In this document: positions 2,906 to 53,233 of the stretch, one piece after another | Numbering within the stretch: the first letter of the stretch is position 1 | How the letters are laid out: every line of letters begins with the position of its first letter | Assembly (NCBI GenBank): GCA_964633905.1 | Contig: CAZWIT010000002.1 | Coordinates: forward strand, 63,209-127,208 | DNA from: an uncultured Gammaproteobacteria bacterium | Lineage (GTDB): Bacteria > Patescibacteriota > Patescibacteriia > UBA1558 > GWA2-36-10 | Length of the DNA stretch: 64,000 nucleotides | Direction of reading: 5' to 3' | Notes under the pieces: generated by a model | Told to the model about the DNA's origin: nothing | The model's database searches: none | Seen by the model: the letters and a program-made list of their open reading frames with translations, nothing else | Translations under genes and position numbers: made by a program

Positions 2906-5252
<2,347 letters not shown>

Positions 5253-26610: not shown

Positions 26611-27252
26611 ATGGGGAATTTTGATAAAAATGTTATGCCAACAAAAAACTCTCAAGAGCCAGAGCCTAATTTTAATTTAGAACAACTATCAAGCGAAGAC
26701 GATCCTGGTACTGTTAGTTTTGCTAAAAAAGTTGGTTTATTTATTTTTGAGATTGTTAAAGTTGTTTTAATCTCTTTAGCTATTATTTTACCGATTCGTT
26801 ATTTTTTAGTGCAGCCTTTCTATGTTGAAGGAGCTTCGATGGAACCAAATTTTTATGATAAAGAATATTTAATCATCGATGAAATATCTTATCGTTTTGA
26901 AAATCCACAAAGAGGAGAAGTAATTATTTTGAAAAATCCTAATGATAGACATTTTTACTTTATCAAGAGAGTGGTTGGCTTGCCTGGTGAAAAAATAGCA
27001 GTTTTGAATGGACGGGTTTTTATCAATGATAAGCAACTTGAAGAAAGTTATATTAAAAATTTTTCACACGATGACTACGGTCCAACTACTTTAGCTGATG
27101 ATGAATACTTTGTGATGGGCGATAATCGCAATAATAGCAGTGACTCTAGATATTTTGGACCATTAAATCGCAAAGATGTCATTGGTCGAGTTTGGGTCAG
27201 GGGCTGGCCTTTAAATCGATTTAATACTTTTAATCCACCAACTTACCAATAA
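26611..27252 (+). CDS. lepB: signal peptidase I
   Basis: GASMEPNF (catalytic Ser box) and GDNRNNSSDSRYFG. Confidence 0.92.
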   Translation: MGNFDKNVMPTKNSQEPEPNFNLEQLSSEDDPGTVSFAKKVGLFIFEIVKVVLISLAIILPIRYFLVQPFYVEGASMEPNFYDKEYLIIDEISYRFENPQRGEVIILKNPNDRHFYFIKRVVGLPGEKIAVLNGRVFINDKQLEESYIKNFSHDDYGPTTLADDEYFVMGDNRNNSSDSRYFGPLNRKDVIGRVWVRGWPLNRFNTFNPPTYQ

Positions 27253-29542: not shown

Positions 29543-31135
29543 ATGCTAATTTTTAAAAAAATGACTGTAGTGAGCCTATTTTTGCTAGCAGTTATTTTTT
29601 TGTATCCAAAAATGGCCTTGGCGCAAGATGCGTTTACTTCTGGTAATTTAGAAAATCTTTCAGTTTATACTACGCGCAGTATCTTTGACATGATTGTCGG
29701 CATTGTCAATGTGGCCTTAGGTTTTTTAGGTGCGATTACAGTTTTATTATTTTTATATGCTGGTTATTTATGGTTGACTTCACGCGGTGCTGCTGATCGT
29801 ATTGATCAAGCTAAAAAGATTATGATCAACGCTACCATTGGTTTAGGTATTATTTTTGTATCTTACGCTTTGGTCAATTTTATTTTCCGCTCAGCTTATG
29901 AAGGTATTTTTGGCGGCGGACCCGGTGGTAATAACAATTATAATCCTTCTTATAGCGGAGGAGTGTTAGGTGGAGTTTTGGAAAGTCATTATCCAGCTTG
30001 GAGTGCTACTAATATACCGCGCAATACTAATATCATTGTTACTTTTAGAGAGGCAATTGATTTAGAACAAATATTATTAAATGATAGTTGTGATCCGGTT
30101 AGCACAGATTGTGCAGTTGATCGTAATAATATTATGGTTTTTGTAGCTGGCAATGAAGATAGTAATTTAGCTAATAATGATCTCTTATTTAGAACAGATG
30201 CAGCTCACAAAAATTTTGTTTTTAATCCAGTGCCATTATTAGGTGATTCCAATGAGCCAGTTGACTATAGGGTGCAATTAAATAATTTACGTACAGAAAA
30301 TGGTTCGCCAGTATTTTCTGGCAGTAACTATTATTATTGGATTTTCTCGGTCGGTACTTGGGTAGACGAAGTGCCTCCTTATGTTGTTTCGGTTGTGCCG
30401 ATTGCTAGTACTGTAGCTCGCAACACTATTGTGCAGATTAATTTTTCGGAAAGTGTTAATCCTCTATATATACCAGCGGTATCTGACGCGGCTGCTAATA
30501 TCAGATTAAGTGATCCCAATCTAATTGATGGTGTTTTTCAATTAAGTAATCAGTATCGAACAGTTGAATTTTTAACTAATTCACAATGTGGTCAAAATTC
30601 TTGCGGCTTTAATATATTTTGTTTACCAGCTTCAGCGACTATTGATGGTATTATTATTGATGAAGTTAGGGATATGGTTGGTAATCAATTAGATGGTAAT
30701 CATGACGGTGATCATGATGTTAATGATAATTTTGATAATTGGCAATTTAACACTAACAACGATATTGATACTACTGGTCCAATTATGACTTATCGTGATC
30801 GCAGTGATGATTGGAATATTTATGCTCCGATTAGGATTAGCTTTGATAGTTCTTTATCGGCTGCTTCAGTAAATTATGACAATGTTAAATTAGATTGGAA
30901 TATTAATTATTGGTTAGGTTTGGCTTCTTATGAACCTACCTATAATAATAGTATTATGATCTACCATAATCCTATGGCAGCAAATACTGATTATAGTATT
31001 TCTTGCTTGTCTGGTATTAGGGATTTACAACAAAATTGTTATCAACCTTGTAATTGTCCCTTGGGTTCCCCAGGTTGTGGTGCAAATCCACCTATGGGCA
31101 CGCCTTGTCCGCCAGGTACTTGTTCATGGAATTAG
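29543..31135 (+). CDS. secreted/membrane-anchored protein: signal peptide plus 2-TM VirB2/TrbC-pilin-like anchor module, Gly-rich linker, Ig-like (SbsA-type) domains, Cys-rich C-terminus
   Basis: N-terminal ~100 aa paralogous to the N-terminus of the giant ORF at 31178; AXA cleavage site (ALA-QDA). Confidence 0.8.
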   Translation: MLIFKKMTVVSLFLLAVIFLYPKMALAQDAFTSGNLENLSVYTTRSIFDMIVGIVNVALGFLGAITVLLFLYAGYLWLTSRGAADRIDQAKKIMINATIGLGIIFVSYALVNFIFRSAYEGIFGGGPGGNNNYNPSYSGGVLGGVLESHYPAWSATNIPRNTNIIVTFREAIDLEQILLNDSCDPVSTDCAVDRNNIMVFVAGNEDSNLANNDLLFRTDAAHKNFVFNPVPLLGDSNEPVDYRVQLNNLRTENGSPVFSGSNYYYWIFSVGTWVDEVPPYVVSVVPIASTVARNTIVQINFSESVNPLYIPAVSDAAANIRLSDPNLIDGVFQLSNQYRTVEFLTNSQCGQNSCGFNIFCLPASATIDGIIIDEVRDMVGNQLDGNHDGDHDVNDNFDNWQFNTNNDIDTTGPIMTYRDRSDDWNIYAPIRISFDSSLSAASVNYDNVKLDWNINYWLGLASYEPTYNNSIMIYHNPMAANTDYSISCLSGIRDLQQNCYQPCNCPLGSPGCGANPPMGTPCPPGTCSWN

Positions 31136-31177: not shown

Positions 31178-34100
31178 ATGAAAAAAATATCCATCCTAGT
31201 AATTTTTTGGCTGCTATTGGGACTGATGTTTGCTCTGCCAGCTTGGGCGCAGGGTGCTTTTGGTACTAATACTTTGACTAATCTGGCTGTTTATAGTACG
31301 CGTAGCATTACTGATACTATAGTTGGTATAGTCAATATTATTTTAGGCTTTTTGGGTGTGATTGCAGTTTTACTTTTTTTGTATTCTGGTTGGCTGTGGC
31401 TATCTTCTAGAGGGGATGCACAAAAGATTCAAAAATCTAAGTTGATTATGGCTAGTACCGTAATTGGCTTATTAATTATTTTTGCTTCTTATGCTATTAC
31501 CAATTTTATTATTGCTAGAATAGCCGAAGAAACCGGCACTATTGAAACTACTCCGCCAGGCTATGTACCACCTGGACCAGGACCTGTTACTTGTCCTTTG
31601 CCCGCCAATGATGGTGATATAGATGTATGTCAAGTTTATCCCGGTGCGGCTGCTCCAGGTAATTATTTTACGATTACAGGTTGGAACTTTGGTAATTATG
31701 TAGCGGGCAATAGCCGAGCAGTATTACGTGATAATTTGGGTAATGAAACAGCTTTAGATTTAGTTAGTTGCGATGGCAATCCAATTTGGAATTTAATTTA
31801 TACTACGCCAGATGGAGATAATAGTTTTTATGAAATTAGAGCAATAGTGCCAGATATTACGGCCGCTGTTTATGATGTTAGAGTTTATCGAAATGCCACT
31901 GTCTTTGATCAAGAGACCAATAATTCATTTACAGTTTCTCCGCCTGGAGCAGTTGGTTTGAATATTGCTTGTTTGCGTCCAAGCTTTGGTGCAGCTCGTC
32001 CAACGCCTGAGAGTGTGATAGCTGAGGGTATTAATTTTGGTACTAGTGCAGGTACAATTAGTATGAAAGGCTGGGTCGGGAGTAGCGAGGCCGATATTAC
32101 TGTTCCTAGTGGCACTTGGGATGATACTTTGATTACTTTTCAAATTCCAGATAATGCTTTAGCGAGTGATGTTAAAATTACTCATAATGCAGATATCAAT
32201 AATTGGGATACTCGTTATTTCATGGTTACTTGCGGTGGTGATGATGGTAATTGTTCTTCTGGTTGCTGTAGTAATTATAATGAATGCCGTCCTAATACAA
32301 ATGAGTTTTGTCCAGCTGGCGCTAATTTCAGTAGTGCGCCACGCATAGATGCTATTAGTCCTAATAATGGTGCAGCTGGAAATTTAGTAACTATTTTAGG
32401 GCAAAACTTTGGTACTGTTGCCGGTACGGTTTGGTTTAATGGTGCTAGCGGTCCGATTCAAGGAGTTGTACCATCAATTCTCTACCCAGGTATTTGTCCA
32501 GCCGGTAATTATTGGTATGATAATTATATAATTATTGGTGTGCCAGTAGGCACTATAGACGGCTCGGTCTATATTATGACTGGAGCAGCTATACCTGAGC
32601 AGAGTAATAATGCATCTTTTGATGAAAATGGAATTTCGCGCCCAGGTTTGTGTCAATTAAATCCTATTGGTGGTAGCTTCCAAAATGAAACTAGAGTTAA
32701 TACAACTGGTATTAATTTTGCCAGCACTGATAAAATTTTATTTTCAGTTGATCCAGATATTACTGGTAATGATTATATTTATACTTCTCCGAATGAAGCC
32801 TCGGCTGTAGTACCAAATTTACAAAACGGTCAAGTTGGTGTTCAAATAAAAAATAACGCTGACCAATATAGTAATCCTTTGCCTTTTCAGGTAAGTGATA
32901 GTTTTTTTGGTCAACCACGCATTGTTACCACTTCTCCTAATGGTATTAAGAGCGGTGTTTATATTACTATTTTTGGTACAAATTTTGGAAATTTAGCTGG
33001 CCAAGTGTTATTTAATGATGTAAATAATGCCACTAATCCAGATCTAGTTGGCATTGTTCCGAGTAATCCAATGTGCCAAAATGCTTATTGGCAGAACAAT
33101 CAAATAGTAGTAGAAACTCCTAATTTGCCAGATATTAGCAATGGCAGTCCTTATGAAATAGTTGTTAAGCGAGCTGATGCAGTAGTAAGCGAAGCTTATG
33201 ATATTAATTATAATACTAGTTTAGAAGACGGAGTCTTTTTGTGTGCCGTAGTACCAGATAATGGCCCTAATAATTTTTCGCCAGTTGATTTTTATGGTTC
33301 GGGCTTTAGTGATAATAGTGTTAGAATTCAATTTAATGGAGCAGCTAATACTGTTAATCCGACAGGCTTTAATGATACTCAAGCTTGGGATACGACAGTG
33401 CCTGGTGATGCCTTGAGTGGTCAAGTAATTTTGCAATCGCAAGCTGATAATGGTACTTGGCTTAATAGTAATGCTTTAAATTTTAATATTGCTGGCTGTT
33501 CTCAAAATTCCGATTGTCAGGGTTCAGAGCAATGTTGTCCTGGTAATTTTGGTAACTATTGTTCTCTAAGTTGTGATCAAATTTTAAGCTGTACTTATAC
33601 CTCTACTTTGCATACCCAAAATATACCTTTTAGTATTAATTATAATTATAATTGTGATACTGATTGGCAGTCACCAACTCCTTGGCCAGATGGATTGTTA
33701 AGTTATTCCTCACAAGATAATTATGTAGACTCTAATATTTCTTTTACCTTTACTCGTAATATTGTTGATGCTGATTTAGAGCCAGCTGCTCATAAAATTA
33801 GGTTGTATGAATGTGATAACAGGAATACTAGTTGTGATGTAGAAATAAATATTGCTACCAATATTATTGGTCAAAATAGTAATCAAGAAGGCGTGCTTAT
33901 TAATCCGCTTAATAATTTAGCAGAAAATACTTGGTATAAGGTGGTTTTAGTAGGTGACTTTAGAGCTGAAGGTGGCAATGAATACTGGAATACTAGTTAT
34001 GATCCTGATTTACAAGTTGTTGGTGGTTGGAATTTTAGAACTAAATCAACTGACTTGGCTTGTGAAATTAGTAGTATTCAAGTAACACCGCAGTCAGCAG

Positions 34101-37100
34101 CTGCTAATTTCTATTTAGGTAATTCTCGAGATTTTTATTCAGCACCAACTGCGAATAATTGTAATTTATGCGGTGGTAATTATAATTGGACTTGGCAATT
34201 GACTAATCCACCTAATCCAGATGCCGCTAATGTGACCGATCCATCAAATATTGGCACTAATATTGGTCATACTCGTTTGACCTCTGATTTACCAATAAAT
34301 TATGCAACTGAATTTTTATCTCCTAATTATGTAAATTTGCAATGTAATGTTAATCAGGCAATTGCGCCTAGTTTTTCACAGCCAGTAGTTTTGGCTCCAA
34401 TCTTATTGGTAGAAAATTATGGCCCACTTTGTTCAGCTTCTTGTGACAATGGCACAGTTTGGATAGATTTTAATACACAAATTGCTGCGACCTATTTAAA
34501 TAATACTTATTTTTCAATTCAAGATTGTAATAATGACGCTAGTTGTGCTAGCCCATTGGCTACAAATTTAGTAAATAATATAGCCTTACCACAAGATAGT
34601 AATTTTAGAATAACTTTGCCTCACGCTGCTTTTACTCATAATCATTATTATCGTGTTCAAGCTTTGGATACAATTAGAAATATTCACGGTTATCAATTAG
34701 ATGATACTAAGACTTGGGTTTTTGGTGTAGGCGATGCATCTTGTGAAGTGGCTAGCGTTAATTTAAATCCTAGCAATGCTACTGTGGCAATTAGTAATCA
34801 AATTGCCTATGGTGCTCAGGCTTATTCTGATCCTAATGCTTGTTATATCCATGGTCAGCCAATTGATTGTTTGGCTGCTAATAATTGTACTTGGTTATGG
34901 GCTTCTTCTAATAATACTATTGCTACTATTGAAAATAATAATAGTAGTGTGAGTAATGCTACTGGTGTGGCTGTGGGCACTACTAATATTTCAGCCAATG
35001 CTCGCCAGGCCGGCGTTGATCATATTGATAGTGGTATTTTGACAGTAGTGGAATCAATTACAACTCCAGTTGATCCGCACTTACCACCACGGGTAGAAAA
35101 TATTAGGCCACTTGATGGTGAGACTAACATTTGTCCTAATGCCGCTATTACTATGGATTTTACTGAGTTAATGGATCCAGCTAGTGTGATGGCTCATGTA
35201 AAATTGTATGCTCAGCCTGATAATTATGATGTTAATGGTGACGGTGTTGCTGATTTACAAGACGTTGCTTTAATTTCAGGGAATATTAATTTATGGGATT
35301 TGGTAGATGTTAATTATGGCGTTACGCATTTTGACAGTAATAGTGATAATATTCCAGATAAGACAACGGTAATTTTATATCCTACAAGTTTATTACGTAT
35401 TGTTAATAAAATTAATCATGTAGTGGTACAAGGCAATGTTACTAGTATTTATAATATTGCCTTAGATAGTGGACAATATAATTTTGAGGGCCAGATTCCT
35501 GATATGCCTGGTAATGATAGCTATTCTTGGCATTTTACAACGGGAGCTGACTTATGTCGTATTAGTTATATACAGACTATCCCAACTAGCGATTGGTTTT
35601 TGTGTGCCGGGGATAATTGTGGCATTACTGACGTTGAACCAGCCACGCCCGGTCATCAACATAGCTATACGGCTATTGCTAGAGATGTGCGTGGCATCGC
35701 TTTAGCAGGCTCTATTAGTTATGATTGGTCATTAAATAATGATGGTATTAATTTATTATTAAATAATGATGGTTCGCCAGCTGCTGGGGCTACACCTAAT
35801 GTTCATTTTAAAGTTGCTAATGAAAATGGACGGGAAACTTTAATTGTTAATGCTCAAGGTAGCGATGTTGGTTCGGCTAGCGCTAATATTGGTATTGATG
35901 TATTTTTATGTGAAGTACCTTGGCCTGGTCCTGGTTTGAATTTATTTCCTTGGCAGGATGATGCTTATAATTTTTCTACTTACTATTGTCCTGATGTTGA
36001 TCAAAATGACGGTATTGCTTCTTTGCCAATTTTAAATAATAATCCGATTGAAAATCCTAATCATCCAGCTAGTGTATTACGCGAGTATATTTTTTCAGTA
36101 CCAGCTCCAGTCAGCATGGATTCAGGTAATAATTTTGGTAGTTTATCTACTAGTAAATATAATCAAACAGATAGTTGGTGGTCGCATTTATTTAAAAAAG
36201 TATCTAAGCCTTGGCAGGCATTAGTAGCCAGAGGTCAGGGTATTGGCACAGACATTATTGCCTTGAGAATCATGTCCAATCTTAATCATTTATCGGTAGA
36301 GGATTGGTATGAATTAAATGCTCCTAACCCAGACATTGGGGGCACTTCTTTGGAGGTTGATGGTTATCCAGCTTTGCAAGTAGGAAATACAGTTTATATT
36401 TCAGCCTTTAATTTAGATGATGCGGGCAATGTTCGTTATACTAATATTTATATTTTAGCTTATAATATTGGCGCTAGACCAACAACAGTAGAGATTTTTA
36501 GTCAGCTACTTGATAATTTTAGATTAAATACTAATGTTGATCAGCAAAATAATATTTGCGTCGGCGGTGTAGATGCAGGCAATGTTTGTAGTAGTGATTT
36601 TGATTGTGCTGACCATAATTGTCAGTCTCAAGGCTTAAAATTACGTCGTGATTTAGTGCGTTTGGGAGACATGTTAAATATTAATAGTAAATTAATTGAG
36701 TATGGTGAAACTCACAAGGCCTGTAGTAATAATAGTTTAACAGCTTGTGTTAATAATTCTCAGTGTCCAAATGGTGGTACTTGTATTAATTATTATCCAC
36801 TGCTTAATGCTGGTACTTTTGTGCGCGGCCAATCTAATAGTTCTTGGCCTTCTTGGCAACAGACTTTGGCTACTGGTTTAAGTGGCTCTTTGCCATTGGA
36901 TCCTATTAATTTATTTAATGCTTGCGGTGATCCAGGTTTTGATCCAAATACTTGTTGGAACGAAGAAGCTTTAGAATTTTCTTGTCCAATTGGCTCTTTG
37001 ATTTATCATTATCAAAGAAGTGAAACTGGCGATGGTTATGATTTGTCGGCTAATTTTGAAAGTATTAGTAATTTTGCTACCTTATTAGATCCTATGGATA

Positions 37101-40100
37101 GTAATATTAATACTGAACTTTTATATTGTAACGCCGCTAGTGCTAACTTAATCAACCCTCGTTGTGGTAATGGTAGAATAGATTGGGTTTGTTCAAATAG
37201 AAATTATAATAATCAAACTGATTGTGAGGCTAATAGCGGAACGTGGTATGAAGAGGAATGTGACGGTGGTTATCAAGATAATCAATGTAATCCAATTTTA
37301 AGTGCTACTTATGGAGTACATACCTGGTGGAACGAACAAAGAACAGGTTGTTATCCAGCTGGTAGTATTGTAGGAGGTAATTCCGTAGAATGTACTTGGT
37401 ATGAGCCTGATGTAGCAACCATGTTTGCTCTATGCGGAGGCTATTGTGGTAATAATGCTTTAGAAAGTAATTATGAAGATTGTGAAAATATAAATGGCAA
37501 TACTAATTTTGGCGGAGTGAATTATAGTTGTGCCAATGGCATAGCGCCTACTTGTAGTCCAACTAGCTGTCAAGCTGTTTGTGGTCCTATGCAAACTCCA
37601 GCTGCAGCTTGCGGTGATGGCATTTGGACTGAATTAGTAGAAGAATGCGATGCTAGTGCTCCTAATAATGCAAATGGTTTATCGGAGTTAGATTGTACAG
37701 AAAATGGTAATGTTAGTTGTAATAACAATTGTGAAGCAGTATGTGATACGGGCGTAGCTTATGACGGTCAGTGTGGCGACGGTAATCTTAATAGTGATAT
37801 CAATCCAGTAAGTGGCGATCCTTATGAAGAATGTGATTATGGTGCTTATGCGGTGCCAAGTCCAGCTCAATCATCGCTTACTAACCCTTATACTTGTTTA
37901 CAAAATTGTACTTTTGGTTCAGATTATTGTAATGATACAATTAAACAAGGTGGTTTTGACGAGATTTGTGATACCACTTTAGCTATTAGTCCGACACCAC
38001 CAAATTCTTCTCGTTATAGTCAATATCAGTGCCGTACAGTAAATGACGCAGCTGATCCTTTGTGGACAAAATGTACACCTACAGCCGGCGGTTATTGTGG
38101 TGATGGCACTATTCAAAATGGACAAAATGGAACTTTCGCAGCTGGTGAAATTTGTGATTCTGCTTATCATCCAACTCCAGCAGAAAGCGGCCCAGAAAAT
38201 ACTTACTCTTGTAGTTATACTTGTATGACTAGGACCGGCGGTTATTGTGGCGACACTATTATACAGGATGGTAATAATGGCACTACTGATTATGGTGAAA
38301 CTTGTGATTATGCTGCTTATGCTCCGCCACTACCAGTAGATGCTGATGATATTAATCATCAATATGTTTGTAGTGATGTTTGTTTAGCTGATAGTGGTGG
38401 CTGGTGTGGTGATTCTATTTTGCAGCCTCAATTTGGCGAAGATTGTGATTATGGTAACCCATCAACTCACACTATTCCAGATCCTTGGAATAGTAATTCC
38501 AGTAATCCCTACACTTGTCCTAGTTGTTCCGTTGGTTCATATTGTGGTGATGGTGTTATTGATGTTGCCTATGGCGAGCAATGTGACGCTGGCATGACAC
38601 CACCAGCACGTAAAGTTGAATTAGCGTTTGTTTATGATATGTCGCGTAGCATGCAAACTGCAGCCGCAGCCTTGTGTGGAGTTTTGGATACTTTCTTAGA
38701 TAATTTTGATCCATCAACTACTTTTAGAGTCAGTATTTTCGTTTTAGGTGATGATGCACCAGGTTCTACTGGTAGTCCGCGCACTTTGACACCTGGTACA
38801 AGCGATGATTTAAGAGCACTGACAGATAATGGCACTTGTAGCACAGATGCTCCAGATACAGTTAGTTGTGAGCATAGAAATGTTTATAATAGCTTAGTGC
38901 GTGGTTGCACTGCGCTTTGGGATAGACATGTAGCAGAAATTGCCACTTATAGTGATAGTACTAATCTTAATAAATTTAGATTTTTAAGTTTTTATGATAA
39001 CAATGCTAGTGATCCAGCCTATAATCACATAACTGGCGGCGTAACAAATTTTACCAGTGCTGATGATCATACTAGCTTAAATGGTTGCAATGATGCAGAA
39101 CCGGGTGGTAGATTAGAGAATTGGGGTTATGCTACTGAAAAAATTATTAACAATTATCAGTGGTTAAGTGGTTATCAACGCATAGTTATACCAGTAAGTG
39201 ATGAGTATGCTTGGTGTGGTGGTGATGTAGCTATACCAACAGCAGCAGCTAATGAGAACAATTGCAATACACCAAATACTTGTTCAGGTACTCCGGCTAC
39301 TGGACAACTTGCTAGTGATGATATTATTTCTAGAATTATAAGTTCGGCTACTAATCCGGCTACAAAAGCTTTTGTTAGCCCAGTAATTTTGGCAGGTGCC
39401 GATAATCAAGCTATAGCTTTGCAAGCAGCCAATGCCACAGGTGGTTATATGAGTACGGCTGCTGATGCTAGTTCTTGGAATACGAATATTAATAATATGG
39501 TTGGTGGCGTTTTCTGTGATAGTCATCCAGCTGATGGTGTTATGGATTGTATGTTGCCTGGTGGAGCTCCACCGGCAGCAGGCTTACCAACTTTGTCATT
39601 GCCATATTATTACATATCAAGTGATAGTAATAGTAGCAATAGGAGCGTAACTATAACTCTTGGTGGTACAGCCACTTGGTGGGATGCAGTTTCAAATGAT
39701 CCAACTTGGATTACCAATGTTAGTAAATCTGGCAACACTCTTTCTTTTAGCATAGCGGCTAATACTGGTTCTGTGACCAGAACTGGCTCAATTAAACTTA
39801 CGGCCGGAGCAGCAACTGGGTCACCAATAACAGTCAATCTTAGCATTGATCAATTAGCGCCAGTGCCAGTGCCAACTTTGTCATTACCATATTATACTTT
39901 AGATAGGGACAGCTCGGCAGTCACTATTAGTGTGCCAGTGACTATTGGCGGTTCAGCTACTTGGTGGCAAGCAATTTCTAATAATACGGCTTGGATTAGT
40001 GGTATAAGTCAAGTAGGTAATACACTTTCTTTTAATATAGCTGCCAATACCGGACCGGATAGGACTGGTACAATTTCAGTTAGAGCTGGCGCGCCCACTG

Positions 40101-41848
40101 GTGTGCCAATAGCAGTGACACTGACTATTAATCAAGCAGCGCCAGTAGTACCTCCTGATACAATGCCGCCAACTCCAATTGGAAATACTTTAGTAGCTAC
40201 TCCAGCCGATGGTCAAATTCGTTTAGATTGGGCAGTAGCCACTGATGATAGAGGCGCAGTTATTTATGAGGTAGAAAGATTAGGGCCTACTACTGGAAAT
40301 TATCTAGCTTATTCTAATACCTTTAATCAAAGCGGTTTAAGTAATGGCGTAAGTTATTCTTATCGAGTCAGAGCACGAGATTTAGCTGGTAATATAACGG
40401 CTTGGACAAATACAGCTTCAGCTACTCCTGTTCCAGCCGCTATTCCGCCAATTGCTCCAGCTAATTTAGAAGCTTTTGCACAAGCAGGGGGTATTTATTT
40501 GACTTGGGGCACGGCAACCGTAGGTGATCCAATATCATATTTTAGACTGGAGCGGTCCACTAATTTTAGTTTTTCAACCGTAGATGTGGTTGCTGACATT
40601 AATTTTGCTAGCTTTACTGGTAGCTATACTGATAGTTTTCCTTTAGCTAATCCGACGGTTACTTATTATTATCGAGTAAAGTCAGTAAATAGTGGTAGTG
40701 GTCTAGAGTCTACTTATGTTGGTCCAGTAAATGCTACTATTCCTGATACAACTGCGCCTAGTGTTCCTACAAATTTAACAAGTACTTATTTGAGTGATAC
40801 ACAGTATCGTTTTAGTTGGACAGTTTCAACAGATAATATTGCTATAGATCATTATGAAGTAGAATATCAGGCTGACGCTTTTGTATCTGATGGCACAGGA
40901 ACAAATATTGGTAATCCAACTACCAACTCAATAGATTTTACATTGGATCCTACGGTTGCAACTTATTCTTTTCGAGTACGAGCCTTTGATGCTGGTGGTA
41001 ATCAATCTGCTTGGTCATCAGCGTTAGTAGCTTTTGCTGTTGATGTCTTGCCACCGACTAATCCTACTAATCTTACAGCTTCTGTTTCATTTGGTAATGT
41101 TAATTTAAATTGGACAGCGGTTAGTGATAATATTGGTGTTAGCGGCTATGATTTATTAAGAGCTACTACTAGTGGTGGGCCTTATACTTTAATTGTTTGT
41201 CCCTCGATGTCTTGTAATGTCACTGGATCAACTGCTAGAAGCAACACTTCTGTAGCGCCGGGGACTTATTATTATGTAGTAAAAGCCTTTGATGCTGCTG
41301 GTAATAGATCGGATATTTCTAATCAAATAGCAGTAACAATTTTGCCACCAGCACCACCTAGTGTACCTACTAATTTTACTGGCATGCCAATAGGCAGATT
41401 AGTAAGTTTAAATTGGACAGCTTCTATTGATGATGTATCAGTGACTAATTATGAGGTTCAATATAAACCTAATTTAACTGGGACCTGGACTCTTGTTGGT
41501 AGTCCAACTACTAATGCTCTGAGCTATTCAGTACCAGCTCTAGTTACCCAACCATATTTTCGTGTTAGAGCTAAAGATAATGATAATAATTATTCAAATT
41601 ATTCAACTGAATTGACCGTTACTATTGATGGTACTGGTTGTACTGAAACATTTTGTAATCAATGGGATGCTATTAATAGTGCTAATAGAACTGCATGTGC
41701 AAATCAGTGTGTAAATAATAGCGGTTGTTGTCAAGCTTGCGTAGATCCATATAATTCTTATGTTGGTTGTCGTTTGAATCCTGATGCGGTTACTAATTCC
41801 TGTTCTAGTAGTCAGGTGTCCATGCCATTAGGTGTGCGTTGTGATTAA
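31178..41848 (+). CDS. giant (3556 aa) mosaic cell-surface protein: VirB2/TrbC-like anchor, IPT/TIG-like Ig repeats, CGDG...ECD Cys-rich repeat array, vWA (MIDAS), 2 BACON-like, 5 FN3, Cys-rich C-terminus; putative adhesin
   Basis: Single uninterrupted ORF; domain signatures read directly from translation (see findings). Confidence 0.9.
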   Translation: MKKISILVIFWLLLGLMFALPAWAQGAFGTNTLTNLAVYSTRSITDTIVGIVNIILGFLGVIAVLLFLYSGWLWLSSRGDAQKIQKSKLIMASTVIGLLIIFASYAITNFIIARIAEETGTIETTPPGYVPPGPGPVTCPLPANDGDIDVCQVYPGAAAPGNYFTITGWNFGNYVAGNSRAVLRDNLGNETALDLVSCDGNPIWNLIYTTPDGDNSFYEIRAIVPDITAAVYDVRVYRNATVFDQETNNSFTVSPPGAVGLNIACLRPSFGAARPTPESVIAEGINFGTSAGTISMKGWVGSSEADITVPSGTWDDTLITFQIPDNALASDVKITHNADINNWDTRYFMVTCGGDDGNCSSGCCSNYNECRPNTNEFCPAGANFSSAPRIDAISPNNGAAGNLVTILGQNFGTVAGTVWFNGASGPIQGVVPSILYPGICPAGNYWYDNYIIIGVPVGTIDGSVYIMTGAAIPEQSNNASFDENGISRPGLCQLNPIGGSFQNETRVNTTGINFASTDKILFSVDPDITGNDYIYTSPNEASAVVPNLQNGQVGVQIKNNADQYSNPLPFQVSDSFFGQPRIVTTSPNGIKSGVYITIFGTNFGNLAGQVLFNDVNNATNPDLVGIVPSNPMCQNAYWQNNQIVVETPNLPDISNGSPYEIVVKRADAVVSEAYDINYNTSLEDGVFLCAVVPDNGPNNFSPVDFYGSGFSDNSVRIQFNGAANTVNPTGFNDTQAWDTTVPGDALSGQVILQSQADNGTWLNSNALNFNIAGCSQNSDCQGSEQCCPGNFGNYCSLSCDQILSCTYTSTLHTQNIPFSINYNYNCDTDWQSPTPWPDGLLSYSSQDNYVDSNISFTFTRNIVDADLEPAAHKIRLYECDNRNTSCDVEINIATNIIGQNSNQEGVLINPLNNLAENTWYKVVLVGDFRAEGGNEYWNTSYDPDLQVVGGWNFRTKSTDLACEISSIQVTPQSAAANFYLGNSRDFYSAPTANNCNLCGGNYNWTWQLTNPPNPDAANVTDPSNIGTNIGHTRLTSDLPINYATEFLSPNYVNLQCNVNQAIAPSFSQPVVLAPILLVENYGPLCSASCDNGTVWIDFNTQIAATYLNNTYFSIQDCNNDASCASPLATNLVNNIALPQDSNFRITLPHAAFTHNHYYRVQALDTIRNIHGYQLDDTKTWVFGVGDASCEVASVNLNPSNATVAISNQIAYGAQAYSDPNACYIHGQPIDCLAANNCTWLWASSNNTIATIENNNSSVSNATGVAVGTTNISANARQAGVDHIDSGILTVVESITTPVDPHLPPRVENIRPLDGETNICPNAAITMDFTELMDPASVMAHVKLYAQPDNYDVNGDGVADLQDVALISGNINLWDLVDVNYGVTHFDSNSDNIPDKTTVILYPTSLLRIVNKINHVVVQGNVTSIYNIALDSGQYNFEGQIPDMPGNDSYSWHFTTGADLCRISYIQTIPTSDWFLCAGDNCGITDVEPATPGHQHSYTAIARDVRGIALAGSISYDWSLNNDGINLLLNNDGSPAAGATPNVHFKVANENGRETLIVNAQGSDVGSASANIGIDVFLCEVPWPGPGLNLFPWQDDAYNFSTYYCPDVDQNDGIASLPILNNNPIENPNHPASVLREYIFSVPAPVSMDSGNNFGSLSTSKYNQTDSWWSHLFKKVSKPWQALVARGQGIGTDIIALRIMSNLNHLSVEDWYELNAPNPDIGGTSLEVDGYPALQVGNTVYISAFNLDDAGNVRYTNIYILAYNIGARPTTVEIFSQLLDNFRLNTNVDQQNNICVGGVDAGNVCSSDFDCADHNCQSQGLKLRRDLVRLGDMLNINSKLIEYGETHKACSNNSLTACVNNSQCPNGGTCINYYPLLNAGTFVRGQSNSSWPSWQQTLATGLSGSLPLDPINLFNACGDPGFDPNTCWNEEALEFSCPIGSLIYHYQRSETGDGYDLSANFESISNFATLLDPMDSNINTELLYCNAASANLINPRCGNGRIDWVCSNRNYNNQTDCEANSGTWYEEECDGGYQDNQCNPILSATYGVHTWWNEQRTGCYPAGSIVGGNSVECTWYEPDVATMFALCGGYCGNNALESNYEDCENINGNTNFGGVNYSCANGIAPTCSPTSCQAVCGPMQTPAAACGDGIWTELVEECDASAPNNANGLSELDCTENGNVSCNNNCEAVCDTGVAYDGQCGDGNLNSDINPVSGDPYEECDYGAYAVPSPAQSSLTNPYTCLQNCTFGSDYCNDTIKQGGFDEICDTTLAISPTPPNSSRYSQYQCRTVNDAADPLWTKCTPTAGGYCGDGTIQNGQNGTFAAGEICDSAYHPTPAESGPENTYSCSYTCMTRTGGYCGDTIIQDGNNGTTDYGETCDYAAYAPPLPVDADDINHQYVCSDVCLADSGGWCGDSILQPQFGEDCDYGNPSTHTIPDPWNSNSSNPYTCPSCSVGSYCGDGVIDVAYGEQCDAGMTPPARKVELAFVYDMSRSMQTAAAALCGVLDTFLDNFDPSTTFRVSIFVLGDDAPGSTGSPRTLTPGTSDDLRALTDNGTCSTDAPDTVSCEHRNVYNSLVRGCTALWDRHVAEIATYSDSTNLNKFRFLSFYDNNASDPAYNHITGGVTNFTSADDHTSLNGCNDAEPGGRLENWGYATEKIINNYQWLSGYQRIVIPVSDEYAWCGGDVAIPTAAANENNCNTPNTCSGTPATGQLASDDIISRIISSATNPATKAFVSPVILAGADNQAIALQAANATGGYMSTAADASSWNTNINNMVGGVFCDSHPADGVMDCMLPGGAPPAAGLPTLSLPYYYISSDSNSSNRSVTITLGGTATWWDAVSNDPTWITNVSKSGNTLSFSIAANTGSVTRTGSIKLTAGAATGSPITVNLSIDQLAPVPVPTLSLPYYTLDRDSSAVTISVPVTIGGSATWWQAISNNTAWISGISQVGNTLSFNIAANTGPDRTGTISVRAGAPTGVPIAVTLTINQAAPVVPPDTMPPTPIGNTLVATPADGQIRLDWAVATDDRGAVIYEVERLGPTTGNYLAYSNTFNQSGLSNGVSYSYRVRARDLAGNITAWTNTASATPVPAAIPPIAPANLEAFAQAGGIYLTWGTATVGDPISYFRLERSTNFSFSTVDVVADINFASFTGSYTDSFPLANPTVTYYYRVKSVNSGSGLESTYVGPVNATIPDTTAPSVPTNLTSTYLSDTQYRFSWTVSTDNIAIDHYEVEYQADAFVSDGTGTNIGNPTTNSIDFTLDPTVATYSFRVRAFDAGGNQSAWSSALVAFAVDVLPPTNPTNLTASVSFGNVNLNWTAVSDNIGVSGYDLLRATTSGGPYTLIVCPSMSCNVTGSTARSNTSVAPGTYYYVVKAFDAAGNRSDISNQIAVTILPPAPPSVPTNFTGMPIGRLVSLNWTASIDDVSVTNYEVQYKPNLTGTWTLVGSPTTNALSYSVPALVTQPYFRVRAKDNDNNYSNYSTELTVTIDGTGCTETFCNQWDAINSANRTACANQCVNNSGCCQACVDPYNSYVGCRLNPDAVTNSCSSSQVSMPLGVRCD
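37430..38610 (+). repeat. array of at least 10 cysteine-rich repeats (CGDG/CGNG ... G-E-x-CD), Myxococcus-type cysteine-rich repeat-like, inside the giant ORF
   Basis: Repeated YCGDGTIQ...GEICD, YCGDTIIQ...GETCDY, WCGDSILQ...GEDCDYG, YCGDGVID...GEQCDAG and similar. Confidence 0.65.
38615..39250 (+). other. von Willebrand factor A domain with MIDAS motif D-M-S-R-S-M inside the giant ORF
   Basis: VELAFVYDMSRSMQTAAAAL ... FRVSIFVLGDD. Confidence 0.6.
39583..40155 (+). repeat. two tandem ~95-aa BACON-like repeats (coding), sharing a near-identical 24-nt start
   Basis: LPTLSLPYYYISSDS...ATWWDAVSND..NTLSFSIAANTG..RTGSIKL...ITVNLSIDQ and PTLSLPYYTLDRDS...ATWWQAISNN..NTLSFNIAANTG..RTGTISV...IAVTLTINQ. 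Confidence 0.6.
40150..41630 (+). repeat. five tandem fibronectin type III domains (coding)
   Basis: Recurrent P..PTNLT...L.W..S.D..GV..Y.V.R...G.....YYYRV.A.D.AGN.S motifs. Confidence 0.7.
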
Positions 41849-41878: not shown

Positions 41879-42724
41879 ATGTTTGAAGATTTAAAACAAG
41901 GTAATGGCCCCACTGGGCCGAGTGTAAATTCAATGCCAAATGCACCAAAGGCGCCGGTAGCTGATATGTTTGCGGAAGTTGATCCAAATAATAGTCCAGA
42001 CGGGCTGATTAGGCCTAGCGCGGTTCAATCAGGAAAAATTAAGCCAGTTGGCAATAATAATTGGTCAGCACCAGATGGGTCAGCAAGCAATGTTCAAGTA
42101 GACCAAATGTTAGTTGGTGATAGCCGTGGGCCAGTTAATCGTAAAATTATTGTAATGGTATCAGTAATTATCTTATTGATAGCTTTTGGAGCAGCTGCTT
42201 ATTTTATCTTTAAAGATAGAATTAATGGTGTTATTAGTAAAAATACTAATGTGACCCAAAACACTAATACTAGCAATGCTAACCTTAACAGAAATCAAAA
42301 CACTAATATTGGTAATGCCAATGTAAATACCAATGTCAATTTGAATCAAAACACTAATGTCCAAGTAAATCTAGACGATGATTCGGATGGATTAGATAAT
42401 GAAACAGAAATCAAGCTAGGCACTAATATTAGACTAGTTGATAGTGATAATGATGGTTTATCAGATTGGGATGAAGTTAAATTATATAAAACCGATCCCT
42501 TAAAGAGTGATTCAGATAATGATAAATTAATTGATGGTCAAGAACAATTAGTTTATTTTACTGATCCTTTAGTTGCTGATACTGATAAAGATGGTTATAG
42601 CGATGGCGAAGAAGTGCTCAATGGCTATAATCCCAAAGGCACTGGTAAACTAGAAAGTACCAGCACAATACCTGGCTTAATTCAAAATTTTAATACTAAT
42701 GTTAATAGTAACGTAAGTCAATAA
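41879..42724 (+). CDS. single-pass membrane protein with N/T-rich low-complexity linker and bacterial thrombospondin-type-3-like Ca-binding repeats (DxDxDG..D..E....TDP)
   Basis: DSDNDGLSDWDEVKLYKTDPLKS / DSDNDKLIDGQEQLVYFTDPLVA / DTDKDGYSDGEEVLNGYNP repeats; one TM. Confidence 0.75.
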   Translation: MFEDLKQGNGPTGPSVNSMPNAPKAPVADMFAEVDPNNSPDGLIRPSAVQSGKIKPVGNNNWSAPDGSASNVQVDQMLVGDSRGPVNRKIIVMVSVIILLIAFGAAAYFIFKDRINGVISKNTNVTQNTNTSNANLNRNQNTNIGNANVNTNVNLNQNTNVQVNLDDDSDGLDNETEIKLGTNIRLVDSDNDGLSDWDEVKLYKTDPLKSDSDNDKLIDGQEQLVYFTDPLVADTDKDGYSDGEEVLNGYNPKGTGKLESTSTIPGLIQNFNTNVNSNVSQ

Positions 42725-42727
42725 ATT

Positions 42728-43735
42728 ATGCTGTTTGACAAAAAGAAAACTGTAAATGATAAAGAGAAAAATATAAAAGAACAAGCCGAAAATGTAGTTA
42801 CTACACCAGCTATTAAAGATGAAGATGTTCATGTTATGCCAGGTAAGTTTGTAGCTTTGGCTCCTGATGTTAAAAAGAGCGGAACTAAAACCATGACTAA
42901 AGTTTTACTTTCTTTACTGTTTTTTTTGATACTGGTGGTAGGAGGAGCAGCTTGGTATATTTTGAGTAAAAAAAATCCAGTTATCGTTGCTAATCAAAAT
43001 AATAATAAAAATATTAATGCCGCTGTTAATAATCAGAACAATACCAATACTAGTAATGTAAATATGAATGTTAATGATATTATTAACAGTATAATTAATA
43101 ATACTACTACCACTAATCAAAATACTAACATTAATAGTAATGTTAATAATGTAGTAGTAGTGCCATCTGAAAATAATCAGGACAGTGACCAAGATGCTTT
43201 GACTTTTCTAGAAGAAACTTTATATAACACTAATGAAGCATTGGCTGATAGTGATAAAGATGGCTATAAAGATGGGGCAGAGTTGTTAAGTTTATACGAT
43301 CCCAGTATTGCTGGTGGGAGTTTAAGTAATTCCAACTTAATTAAAGTTTACAAAAATGATAATTTTAGTTATCAGCTTTTTGTTCCTAAAAAATGGTTAG
43401 TACAAAGTATTGATGACGGTCGTCGGCAAATCAACTTTGTGCCAGATTCGGCTACTGGCGAAACCATTGTTATTAAAGTGACAGATAACACTCAACATTC
43501 AGAACTAGCCGATTGGCAGAAGATTTTATTGCCAACTAAAACTGTAGAAAATTATCGTTTAGCTAATTATTCGGCGGTAAAAACTAGTGATGGTAAGCAA
43601 GTTTTATTTGTCAACTATGATTATGTTTTTATGATTAGCTATGATCAAGCAAGCGTTGTTAATGCTAATTTTAGTACAACTTTTGGCATGATGTTAAAGA
43701 GTTTTGCTTTAAATATTAAGGAAGTTTCCAATTAA
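42728..43735 (+). CDS. paralog of the 41879 ORF: single-pass membrane protein, N-rich low-complexity tract, TSP3-like repeats, ~150-aa C-terminal domain
   Basis: DSDKDGYKDGAELLSLYDP motif shared with upstream ORF; same architecture. Confidence 0.75.
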   Translation: MLFDKKKTVNDKEKNIKEQAENVVTTPAIKDEDVHVMPGKFVALAPDVKKSGTKTMTKVLLSLLFFLILVVGGAAWYILSKKNPVIVANQNNNKNINAAVNNQNNTNTSNVNMNVNDIINSIINNTTTTNQNTNINSNVNNVVVVPSENNQDSDQDALTFLEETLYNTNEALADSDKDGYKDGAELLSLYDPSIAGGSLSNSNLIKVYKNDNFSYQLFVPKKWLVQSIDDGRRQINFVPDSATGETIVIKVTDNTQHSELADWQKILLPTKTVENYRLANYSAVKTSDGKQVLFVNYDYVFMISYDQASVVNANFSTTFGMMLKSFALNIKEVSN

Positions 43736-50252: not shown

Positions 50253-51725
50253 ATGTTTGACCATTTAGGTCCAATGCCAAAAATTAGTTTTCGGAAAAAG
50301 CCAATAAATTATCAGGCTTATTTTACTTTTCTATTAATGGCTATTATCGTCTTTACTCTTAGCTGGTCAATACAAAGTGGATCCAATATTGCCGCTGCGC
50401 CAGTAGATCAGCCACAAGTATTAGTAAGTACAGAGGCGCTTGATCAAAATATAGTTTTAGGTAGTACTAATTTGTCTATCTTTTCGATGCAAATAGAAAC
50501 TAAGCTAGCTGGAGTGGCTTTAAAATCTTTAAATATTCAAGCACAGGGTATATACAAGGCAGAATTTCTAGAAGATTTAAAATTGTCGCATAATGGTATG
50601 CAGTTAGGGCAATTGTCAGATATAGATGATCAAGGTATTTTACATTTTGATTTGGATGGCTATGTTTTGCCACTAGGTAAAAATGAATTACGATTGACAG
50701 TTAAAAATAGTGATAATTTAGAAGTTGGTGATATTTTAAATTTTAATTTAACAGATGCTAGTAGTTTAGTTTGGTCCTATGAAGGAAAAGAATATTTAGC
50801 TAGAGGCGCTTGGCCTATTTCTGGTGGCACAATAAATATTATACCCCAAGGTAGCTTGTGGGCATATCAAGGTTTAAATAAAAAAGAATTAGCAGTTGTG
50901 GCTAAGCAAAATAATAATTTAGCTGAGTTTAGTCTAGCAGTGGATGGCGAAAGAGTTGATTTGGATAAATTAACTTTTCGATACAAGACTTCTAACAATG
51001 AAGACATAGCTAGTGATTTTATTTTATTATCTCAAGGTTTAGTCCTAGCTAAGGCCCAAGCACAAGATGATTTAATAGAATTTAATTTAAATAAACCTTT
51101 ATCTTTAGCTATTAATCAGGCCTTGCCTTTTGTTTTGGCTGCTAAGTTAGGATTAGGTGATTACGAGCTAGAGCTAGAGTCTGTTCAAGGTCACGGTTTA
51201 GTTTCTGGTAAAATTATTAATTTATCTGAAAAATTGACCTTAGCTAAAGTTATCTCTAAAGAGCAGCTACTTCAATTTAGTAATTTAGCAATTGATAAAA
51301 ATATTAATCAAGATTGGCTAACAGCTGCTAATATTTCTGTCAAAAAATTAAATTCAGAAGCAGCAGTGTTACACCGTTTGACTTGGCGCTTGGATAGTAA
51401 TTTAGTGGATATCAAGGCTGCTAAAATTTTGGTTAATGATAAAGTAAAAAATTTAGATTTAGTTATAAAAGAAGATAAATTGATTGCCAAGGCTGCCTGG
51501 TCAGATCCTATTGTTTTATCAGAATTTAACACTAATATAAAATTATTGTTACAAATCGATAAATTTCAAGAAGGCTCTTTTATCCAGACTAGCTTATTAA
51601 GTGATGGTCAGGCCTATCAAGCTGATCAGTGGTCTGATAATTTACTATGGTCAGTAAATGGGCAAAAATATAATGCTTATGCTTTGCCCAGTTTGCCTTT
51701 AGAGCCACAATTAATTAGCAACTAG
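50253..51725 (+). CDS. hypothetical signal-anchored extracellular protein (490 aa)
   Basis: N-terminal TM then hydrophilic beta-rich sequence; immediately upstream of comEC. Confidence 0.65.
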   Translation: MFDHLGPMPKISFRKKPINYQAYFTFLLMAIIVFTLSWSIQSGSNIAAAPVDQPQVLVSTEALDQNIVLGSTNLSIFSMQIETKLAGVALKSLNIQAQGIYKAEFLEDLKLSHNGMQLGQLSDIDDQGILHFDLDGYVLPLGKNELRLTVKNSDNLEVGDILNFNLTDASSLVWSYEGKEYLARGAWPISGGTINIIPQGSLWAYQGLNKKELAVVAKQNNNLAEFSLAVDGERVDLDKLTFRYKTSNNEDIASDFILLSQGLVLAKAQAQDDLIEFNLNKPLSLAINQALPFVLAAKLGLGDYELELESVQGHGLVSGKIINLSEKLTLAKVISKEQLLQFSNLAIDKNINQDWLTAANISVKKLNSEAAVLHRLTWRLDSNLVDIKAAKILVNDKVKNLDLVIKEDKLIAKAAWSDPIVLSEFNTNIKLLLQIDKFQEGSFIQTSLLSDGQAYQADQWSDNLLWSVNGQKYNAYALPSLPLEPQLISN

Positions 51726-51781: not shown

Positions 51782-53233
51782 ATGACTAAAAGCAAATTTG
51801 GTTTGCTGCTTAGCTGTATTTTTTTAAGCGCGAATTTACTAAGTATTTTATATTTAGTTAATATTAAGCTAAATTGGTTTTATTTTTATGTAGCTTTAGT
51901 GGCTATTTTTATTTTGTCTTTTAAATGGCGTTACTTCTGTTTAGGGCTAGTATTTTTATTAGCAGTCATCAGAGTTTATGATTTTAAACAAACAGAAAGA
52001 TATGTGCAGGCTAATTTTATTTATGGAAATAGCTATCAATTTAGAGGTGAAATAGTTGATTTAGATCAAAAAATAAATGGCTGGCAGTTAGTTGTTAAAG
52101 CAAATGATTTAGAAAATTTTAAAGGCAAGATTTTAGTTTACGCTCCCTTGTATCCGGAGTATTCTTTATTTGATAATCTAGAGCTTAGTTGCAAACTATT
52201 TAAGCCAGAGCCTTTTACTAGTGAACTTACGGGCAGGGATTTTGCTTATGATAAATATTTAGCAAAAGATAATATTTTTGCTATTTGTCCACAGCCGAAA
52301 TTAAAAAAACTTAATACTAGTAATATTTGGTGGCAGCAAGTATCTAAAAGTAAACAGCATTTTTTAAATAATTTGAACATTGCTTTGCCCGAGCCGGCGG
52401 CTGCTTTTACTAAAGCAATTATCTTAGATTCGCGGCGAGAGTTGCCAACTGAAATTAATCCTAGCTTTAGCCATACAGGCCTTACACACGTCATTTCTAT
52501 TTCTGGTTTGCACATGGTGGTAATAATTTGGTTTTGGCAAACTTTTTTGCAACTACTTGGTTTAAAGCGCCAACACATCTTTTGGGTTTTAGTTTTGAGT
52601 TTATTTCTTTATTTATATTTATTAAATTTTATTAGCCCAGCCTTACGCTCAACTGCTATGATTTTGCTAGTGTTACTAGGACCTCTAATAGGACGGCCAG
52701 CAATATCAGGCTATAGTTTATTATTTTTAGCAGATATTTTAGTTTTACTTAATCCTTATATTTTAGCTTATGATTTAGGCTTTCAATTGTCTTTTTCAGC
52801 AACCCTAGGTTTAATATTTTATACAAATTGGTGGCAAGCAAAGTTAGCAAAAGTTAGCAATTTTTTAAAGATTAGAGAAGTGCTAGCCGTGACTCTGGCA
52901 GCTCAAACTTTTACTTGGCCACTAGTTATGTATTATTTTGGCATTTTTTCTATAGTAGCGCCTGTAGCTAATTTTTTAGTTTTACCAATATTCCCGCCAA
53001 TTTTAATTTTAGGAATTTTAATGGCGATTTTTGGGGGTAGCTTAGCTTATATTTTAAGTTGGCCCTTGCTTCTTTTAATCAAGATAATGTTTTATTTAGT
53101 GGATTATTTAGGTGGGCTACCCTATGCCTATTTTATACAAACTAATTTTTCTTTAATATTTTTAGTTGTTAGTTTGCTTTTAATGTTTTTGCTTACTATA
53201 ATTATTAAGCCTTATGTCAAACAAACAGATTAA
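51782..53233 (+). CDS. comEC: DNA internalization competence protein ComEC/Rec2, membrane (competence) domain
   Basis: Polytopic; FSHTGLTHVISISGLHM competence-domain motif. Confidence 0.85.
   Translation: MTKSKFGLLLSCIFLSANLLSILYLVNIKLNWFYFYVALVAIFILSFKWRYFCLGLVFLLAVIRVYDFKQTERYVQANFIYGNSYQFRGEIVDLDQKINGWQLVVKANDLENFKGKILVYAPLYPEYSLFDNLELSCKLFKPEPFTSELTGRDFAYDKYLAKDNIFAICPQPKLKKLNTSNIWWQQVSKSKQHFLNNLNIALPEPAAAFTKAIILDSRRELPTEINPSFSHTGLTHVISISGLHMVVIIWFWQTFLQLLGLKRQHIFWVLVLSLFLYLYLLNFISPALRSTAMILLVLLGPLIGRPAISGYSLLFLADILVLLNPYILAYDLGFQLSFSATLGLIFYTNWWQAKLAKVSNFLKIREVLAVTLAAQTFTWPLVMYYFGIFSIVAPVANFLVLPIFPPILILGILMAIFGGSLAYILSWPLLLLIKIMFYLVDYLGGLPYAYFIQTNFSLIFLVVSLLLMFLLTIIIKPYVKQTD

Follow-up and report, generated by a model that had tools for sequence, protein, structure and literature searches.

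A giant protein with a pilin-like membrane anchor, conserved in a Patescibacteria lineage, is a candidate fibrillar adhesin

The 64-kb stretch of DNA analyzed here (contig CAZWIT010000002.1, positions 63,209 to 127,208; hereafter the window) encodes a protein of 3,556 amino acids (aa), referred to below as the giant, in which a signal peptide and an apparent membrane anchor of the type IV secretion system (T4SS) pilin family precede a long stack of adhesion-type domains. Judged by sequence comparison, its first ~2,200 residues represent a family that is syntenic, inherited vertically and present in 19 species or more. We consider the giant to be probably a fibrillar adhesin tethered to the membrane, in which the stalk is conserved and the ligand-binding tip varies. 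The initial annotation of this open reading frame (ORF), made from the sequence of the window, had described an idiosyncratic mosaic; what emerged instead is a conserved family in which all 15 complete copies carry the pilin-like anchor. Its suggestion that the host genome is that of an ultrasmall bacterium of the candidate phyla radiation (CPR) agrees with the taxonomy of the homologues. The parts of the giant are as follows, with the basis of each assignment in brackets.

31178..31249 (+), signal peptide, aa 1-24, cleavage motif AWA/Q (translation and hydropathy; N-terminal layout common to 15 of 15 complete orthologues)
31298..31519 (+), VirB2/T4SS-pilin-like two-helix hairpin anchor, aa 41-114 (PF18895, PF04956 and Mbov_0395 matches; short-pilin homologues)
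31610..33517 (+), IPT/TIG-like Ig domains, aa ~145-780 (three Pfam-significant, up to six plausible)
33722..35377 (+), Big_5 (SbsA-type) and Big_2-like Ig domains, aa ~849-1400 (Pfam)
36245..37147 (+), central domain, aa ~1690-1990, where conservation within the family is highest (comparison of orthologues)
37163..38587 (+), eight to nine Cys-rich repeats, CGDG-x(5-18)-E-x-CD, aa 1996-2470 (motif scan)
38609..39517 (+), putative divergent von Willebrand factor A (vWA) or integrin beta-I-like domain, aa ~2478-2780 (candidate metal ion-dependent adhesion site, MIDAS, D2487-x-S-x-S2491; PVSDE at aa 2672-2676)
39677..40120 (+), two BACON domains, aa 2834-2887 and 2929-2981 (PF13004, 58.9 bits)
40172..41614 (+), five FN3 domains, aa 2999-3479 (four stretches by PF00041; four plus a fifth by a self-derived hidden Markov model, HMM)
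41633..41845 (+), Cys-rich C-terminal tail, aa 3486-3556 (translation; counterpart in the relative P0048)

The N-terminus is much as it was first read, with an AXA-type signal peptide and two hydrophobic helices (aa ~43-75 and ~88-113 by hydropathy) separated by a short basic loop, SSRGDAQKIQKSK. This loop has a net charge of +3, and the flanks of the hairpin carry +1 (before) and -2 (after), a distribution from which the positive-inside rule predicts a cytoplasmic loop with both hairpin ends outside, so that the residues after ~114 would be extracellular. The proposed kinship with VirB2/TrbC pilins is borne out by several profiles. PF18895 (T4SS_pilin) matches aa 41-111 over positions 2-71 of its 71, scoring 28.8 bits when aa 1-130 are scanned alone, above the gathering threshold of 26.6, and 23.0 bits, below that cut-off, in the context of the entire 3,556-aa protein. 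The TrbC/VirB2 family PF04956 matches with an E-value of 1e-3, and the NCBIfam model Mbov_0395, a "pilin-like conjugal transfer protein" of a Mycoplasma integrative and conjugative element, matches at 2e-7, under its own cut-off. A homologue search with aa 1-140 retrieved 32 proteins, all stand-alone pilins of 109-192 aa; 31 of them carry a precomputed PF18895 match, and the few that are named come from Patescibacteria. The anchor is 31-56% identical to stand-alone pilins, and an LGFLG...G...G pattern is invariant in an alignment with 21 short pilins. Agrobacterium VirB2 (8cue, 8exh) was found by a profile of the anchor alignment in the PDB at E 0.7-1.4, which is not significant and is consistent with the pilin reading. 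Collectively, these sequence comparisons place the anchor in the T4SS pilin family.

With the VirB2-like pilins of Patescibacteria (PF18895; related PF04956) the giant thus shares a signal peptide, two helices and a short, positively charged loop. Those pilins, however, are small (~100-190 aa) and stop 10-20 residues past helix 2, whereas the giant continues for another ~3,440 aa. Similarly, described T4SS pilins often lie beside virB4 (PMC12102498), whereas the giant sits among housekeeping genes, and none of the T4SS apparatus genes sought (virB4, virB6, virD4-like) occurs among the scanned ORFs of the window. By translation and hydropathy, the giant has no further transmembrane (TM) segment, no LPXTG motif and no hydrophobic C-terminal anchor, and the prepilin motif G/FTLIE of type IV class III leaders is present in no ORF of the window.

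To place the giant among its relatives, we searched with aa 1458-2810 and obtained ten sequences. Five of these are long (2,133-2,268 aa), carry PF18895, TIG and, except in P0046, an annotated Big_5, and are collinear with the giant from aa 1 to ~2050-2180. A census of one genome per GTDB species, scanned with an alignment of the central domain, yielded 19 loci in species-representative genomes (L001-L019), and therefore at least 19 species. The named records among them are mostly metagenome-assembled genomes of Patescibacteria (Komeilibacteria, Nomurabacteria, Parcubacteria). Among the records for L001, L006, L009, L012, L017, L018 and P0038/L003, several are titled "uncultured Gammaproteobacteria" (third-party annotation, TPA, assemblies), which is implausible, and one "Planctomycetota"; on loci of Patescibacteria type, these titles are probably mislabelled or the sequences mis-binned.

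The 15 complete orthologues, 2,268-2,880 aa in length, all start with the pilin-like anchor (E 1e-35 to 5e-48 against the anchor profile). Identity to 14 orthologues, calculated per 100-aa bin, is 44% in the anchor, 22-39% in the stalk region and 52% at aa 1701-1900, and falls past aa 2200. The stretch from aa 2801 to 3556 is essentially absent from the 14 aligned species representatives, though it is found in P0048, which is 62% identical. The copy in the window is the longest of the family, having two BACON domains, five FN3 domains and the Cys-rich tail added past the vWA-like domain. Anchor, stalk and central domain are therefore the conserved part of these proteins, and the C-terminal ~1,000-1,300 aa are lineage-variable.

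The most conserved module, the central domain, had been missed in the initial annotation. Across ten sequences its ~300 residues include about 50 invariant positions, and it has no relative in Pfam, NCBIfam or the PDB. In one homologue (P0047) the same domain follows a plain TM segment and not the stalk, which marks it as an independent module.

Membrane-proximal to this domain lie the Ig-like repeats, and here the segment scans gave scores above gathering for TIG (66.9 bits) and Big_5 (27-33 bits), as they did for the distal BACON (58.9 bits) and fn3 (67.3 bits) domains. Of the five or more TIG-like repeats first proposed, three stretches are Pfam-significant; the remainder are weaker (aa 153-197, 283-311 and 701-728), with up to six domains plausible overall. 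SbsA-type Ig domains are present as three Big_5 stretches over the Pfam threshold, and Big_2 is weak. At the distal end, both BACON-like repeats are recovered by PF13004, an HMM built from the other four FN3 domains picks up the fifth (aa ~3094-3172) at E 4e-7, and the Cys-rich C-terminus is kept in P0048. The adhesion-type stack first described is present. The Cys-rich array is shorter than the ten or more copies originally counted, with eight to nine repeats, and is kept in part in orthologues. These repeats resemble the Myxococcus repeat models without matching them: neither TIGR02232, DUF4215 nor any other NCBIfam or Pfam repeat model matches aa 2031-2440 at E<=1. Assignment to TIGR02232 or DUF4215 was ruled out on that ground. 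A match to TIGR04201 near aa 1857 is sub-threshold (18 bits versus 25).

The region directly past the Cys-rich repeats had been read as a vWA domain with the MIDAS motif DMSRSM. Sequence searches do not detect it: the VWA models PF00092, PF13519 and PF13768 have no match at E<=1 in aa 2421-2810, and Pfam, NCBIfam, a phmmer search of the PDB and a word-indexed homologue search likewise returned nothing for the region. The predicted structure has the alpha/beta Rossmann-like arrangement of a vWA fold, in which one predicted beta strand ends in DMSRS (aa 2487-2491) and another is followed by PVSDE. Three orthologues (L004, L014 and L017) carry a Pfam-significant VWA domain (E 2e-13 to 4e-9) directly past their last Cys repeat, another with the same sub-type as the giant (L002) reaches only E 0.05, and at the equivalent site seven orthologues have a hydrophobic strand followed by DxSxSM. 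An exhaustive HMMER search among 1.84 billion representatives found 22 matches to this sub-type, eight of which span the entire domain; in matches that include the protein end, it usually lies C-terminally, in giant proteins with the same pilin anchor. We therefore retain the vWA assignment in part, as a putative divergent vWA or beta-I-like domain that only structure prediction and comparison with orthologues bring to light. Relative to integrin beta-I and vWA domains, the version in the giant escapes the VWA HMMs and has extra Cys-bearing loops.

A protein of this size and repetitiveness in metagenome-type sequence, with an exact cluster of two members only, invites the suspicion of a chimera, a collapsed repeat or a pseudogene that is open by chance. 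The evidence largely refutes this explanation, which we regard as scarcely credible. The frame 31178-41848 (+) runs through 3,556 codons and 10.7 kb without a stop at ~35-41% GC, as first reported, and the surrounding genes are co-directional, with GC of 35-41% and positive GC skew throughout the window. The exact protein is recorded in NCBI and Logan on a 195-kb contig. Independent assemblies cover three stretches of it: an ENA fragment (P0034) matches aa 1-789 at 90% identity, a distinct 7-kb contig (L001) matches aa 196-2550 at 91%, and aa 2569-3398 are matched collinearly, at 62%, by a fragment of 1,084 aa (P0048), whose alignment runs on at lower identity to aa ~3542 and includes a matching Cys-rich tail. 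Moreover, the repeats are diverged at the protein level, and the architecture is common to the 15 complete orthologues. The giant ORF is real and not an assembly chimera. A scan for promoters and terminators across 28.5-44.6 kb gave counts no higher than shuffled controls.

The giant does not stand alone. It belongs to a cassette of four genes, the other three of which are listed here.

29543..31135 (+), upstream partner, 530 aa, with a signal peptide, a pilin-like anchor and Big_5 (PF18895, 25.9 bits; Pfam Big_5)
41879-42724 and 42728-43735 (+), two downstream genes, 281 and 335 aa (Pfam TSP3_bac; translations)

The partner, a paralogue overlooked in the initial annotation, and the giant are 53% identical over 117 aa of the anchor and share nothing beyond it. 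In 15 of 15 complete loci, a partner orthologue lies directly upstream of the giant gene. In both downstream proteins the N-terminus is cytoplasmic, and a single TM helix leads through an extended Asn-rich linker to Ca-binding repeats of the TSP3 type (DxDxDG); the pair is kept 3' of the giant gene in 14-17 loci. In 14-15 loci the whole order is LepB-HisRS-S21-YqeY, the ~530-aa pilin-anchored partner, the giant, the two TM/TSP3 proteins and YbeY-DgkA-FtsA-FtsZ, and this synteny with housekeeping and division genes argues for vertical inheritance. Because the partner and TSP3 genes are always co-encoded with the giant, their products are probably part of the same surface assembly. In addition to HisRS and FtsA/FtsZ, the window encodes ATP synthase, a UvrD/PD-(D/E)XK helicase-nuclease, PheRS, GyrB, NusG-L11-L1, Der, LCP, HtrA, a release factor, ComEC, EF-G and EF-Tu, and the flanks of the orthologues (~5 kb upstream and ~8 kb downstream) are collinear with its housekeeping genes. 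LepB (signal peptidase I; 26611-27252, +) is a member of the conserved block, four genes 5' of the pilin-anchored pair. VirB2-type propilins are processed by signal peptidase, and the linkage of LepB to the pilin-anchored genes may be coincidental.

In the reading that we favor, the giant would be a lineage-conserved surface fibre of a Patescibacterium of the Parcubacteria/Komeilibacteria type. The protein would be exported by Sec and lose its signal peptide, and the VirB2/T4SS-pilin-like hairpin would remain in the cytoplasmic membrane, its basic loop facing the cytoplasm and its two ends the exterior, a topology that would display the C-terminal extension of ~3,400 residues outside the cell. 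The membrane-proximal ~1,600 aa (TIG and Big_5, roughly 10-12 Ig-like modules) would form the stalk, lengthened distally by seven further beta-sandwich domains (BACON and FN3), and at 3-4 nm per domain such a fibre might reach tens of nanometres from a cell a few hundred nanometres wide. The central domain would probably make contact with a partner that is itself conserved, be it the envelope of the cell or the co-encoded proteins, while the variable distal part (Cys-rich repeats, vWA-like domain with its MIDAS-like DxSxS, BACON and FN3) would bind the surface of a partner or host cell, in a metal-dependent manner through the vWA-like domain and possibly directed at glycans through BACON. Attachment to a host in this way would accord with the interpretation of beta-rich OD1 proteins longer than 1,500 aa as adhesins (PMC4508563).

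Several observations weigh against this adhesin reading. The MIDAS is only partly identifiable, its Thr ligand and second Asp being without assignment, and the Asp of PVSDE varies across a nine-sequence alignment. The vWA model is moderately confident (predicted local distance difference test, pLDDT, 64), and in an hhalign comparison of the giant's sub-type with the domain of a canonical-type orthologue only the 20-residue beta1-DxSxSM motif aligned, at a probability of 65%, which leaves position and predicted fold as the grounds for homology across the entire domain. No fold could be assigned to the central domain, and a conserved gene in a fixed housekeeping neighbourhood could also encode a structural component of the envelope. 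The last point leads to a rather unlikely alternative, in which the cassette of four genes would produce a constitutive surface layer, a spacer or a division-associated scaffold for the cell itself, and not an adhesin that binds a host. The cassette is single-copy and strictly syntenic, and in 14-15 species it lies directly 5' of ybeY-dgkA-ftsA-ftsZ; Pfam describes Big_5, the SbsA-type Ig domain, as associated with S-layer proteins; no putative ligand-binding part is as conserved as the central domain; and the TSP3 repeats of the neighbours suggest Ca-bridged assemblies. S-layer proteins, however, are usually not multi-module fibres of 2,300-3,500 aa, and the distal third of the giant, highly variable between species and rich in vWA with DxSxS, BACON and FN3, fits recognition of a partner better.

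A further alternative, which we consider improbable, takes the pilin family of the anchor at face value: a T4SS would pull the hairpin, like VirB2, out of the membrane and into a VirB2-type pilus or its tip, and the pilus would then bear the giant and the 530-aa partner. The pilus would otherwise consist mostly of short pilins, in parallel with PilB/PilC, modular type IV pilins of Streptococcus sanguinis, and with sortase-pilus tip adhesins. Both termini of the subunit point outward in solved VirB2 and F pili, which makes a C-terminal extension sterically possible at the tip or at sparse sites. The full-length match to the pilin family and the identity to stand-alone pilins, described above, are in keeping with such a role. 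In addition, the two adjacent pilin-anchored genes resemble the tandem "VirB2 arrays" of CPR bacteria (PMC12102498), no PrgB-like adhesin was found in CPR T4SS (PMC12102498), and pilins are essential in the T4SS of Southlakia (PMC10633639). Against this stand the missing virB4, virB6 and virD4-like genes in the window, the collinear housekeeping flanks of the orthologues, and the extension itself, which at 3,400 aa is incompatible with regular packing along a pilus shaft. We are equally doubtful of the broader proposal that the giant and its ~530-aa neighbour are "modular VirB2-type pilins", T4SS pilin subunits with large passenger domains that ride on or nucleate a T4SS-type pilus in a monoderm ultrasmall bacterium. 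If the two were modular pilins, they would supply the adhesins that have reportedly escaped detection for the essential T4SS of Patescibacteria. Alternatively, the hairpin may have been exapted as a general anchor independent of T4SS.

The membrane-tethered adhesin that we prefer has precedents in its separate elements, since giant beta-rich putative adhesins of OD1 (PMC4508563), the VirB2-like pilins of CPR bacteria, and modular or vWA-bearing tip adhesins elsewhere are already known. With giant fibrillar adhesins such as SiiE and the large repeat adhesins of monoderms, and with the "unique" large proteins (>1500 aa) noted in OD1/Parcubacteria (PMC4508563), the giant shares a long Ig-like/FN3 stalk bearing distal binding modules, and it is probably the largest protein of a tiny genome. 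Those proteins, however, are anchored by retention in a type I secretion system, by LPXTG or by a C-terminal TM segment, whereas the giant would rely on an N-terminal pilin-type hairpin and, unlike them, combines a conserved central domain free of repeats with a fixed cassette of four genes. The structures to set beside its vWA-like region are vWF A domains, the pilus adhesins RrgA (2ww8), SpaC (6m48), PitA (7w6b) and Mfa5 (6tnj), and the modular pilin PilB of S. sanguinis (7b7p). These pilus proteins belong to the type IV, sortase or type V pilin classes, to which the T4SS VirB2-like anchor is unrelated, and the giant is several times larger than they are and lacks a prepilin motif or LPXTG. 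The T4SS of CPR bacteria is unusual among monoderm systems in having VirB2-like pilins, with no associated adhesin found (PMC12102498, PMC12857230); these pilins are essential and often arranged in tandem arrays (PMC10633639, PMC12102498, PMC12857230). By the HMM criteria of one of these studies (PMC12102498), the two pilin-anchored genes could be counted as a "VirB2 array" with their size unnoticed. In the literature that we searched, we found neither large ectodomain proteins anchored at the N-terminus by a VirB2/T4SS-pilin module nor a description of the conserved four-gene cassette.

Patescibacteria need contact with other cells, and outside Saccharibacteria the molecules of this contact are unknown; the pilin-anchored pair provides a concrete candidate for such an apparatus in a Parcubacteria lineage. 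The pair also offers a natural test of VirB2-type hairpins as carriers of passengers or as stand-alone anchors, the layout of conserved stalk and variable tip could be mined for host specificity, and the ~300-aa central domain, being without known relatives, is a target for structure determination.

Elsewhere in the window, the + strand carries nearly all ORFs of at least 100 aa, and every 2-kb bin shows a positive GC skew, which suggests that the whole 64 kb belongs to one replichore with a strong leading-strand gene bias. A 573-aa ORF (17101-18822, +) adjoining gyrB has as its sole match AftA_C, the C-terminal domain of an arabinofuranosyltransferase, which is unusual for Patescibacteria. 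The ComEC-like competence gene (51782-53233) is preceded directly on its 5' side by an ORF of 490 aa (50253-51725, +) that has a TM segment at its N-terminus and matches nothing in Pfam, and a gene of the metallo-beta-lactamase fold lies at 53214-54053.

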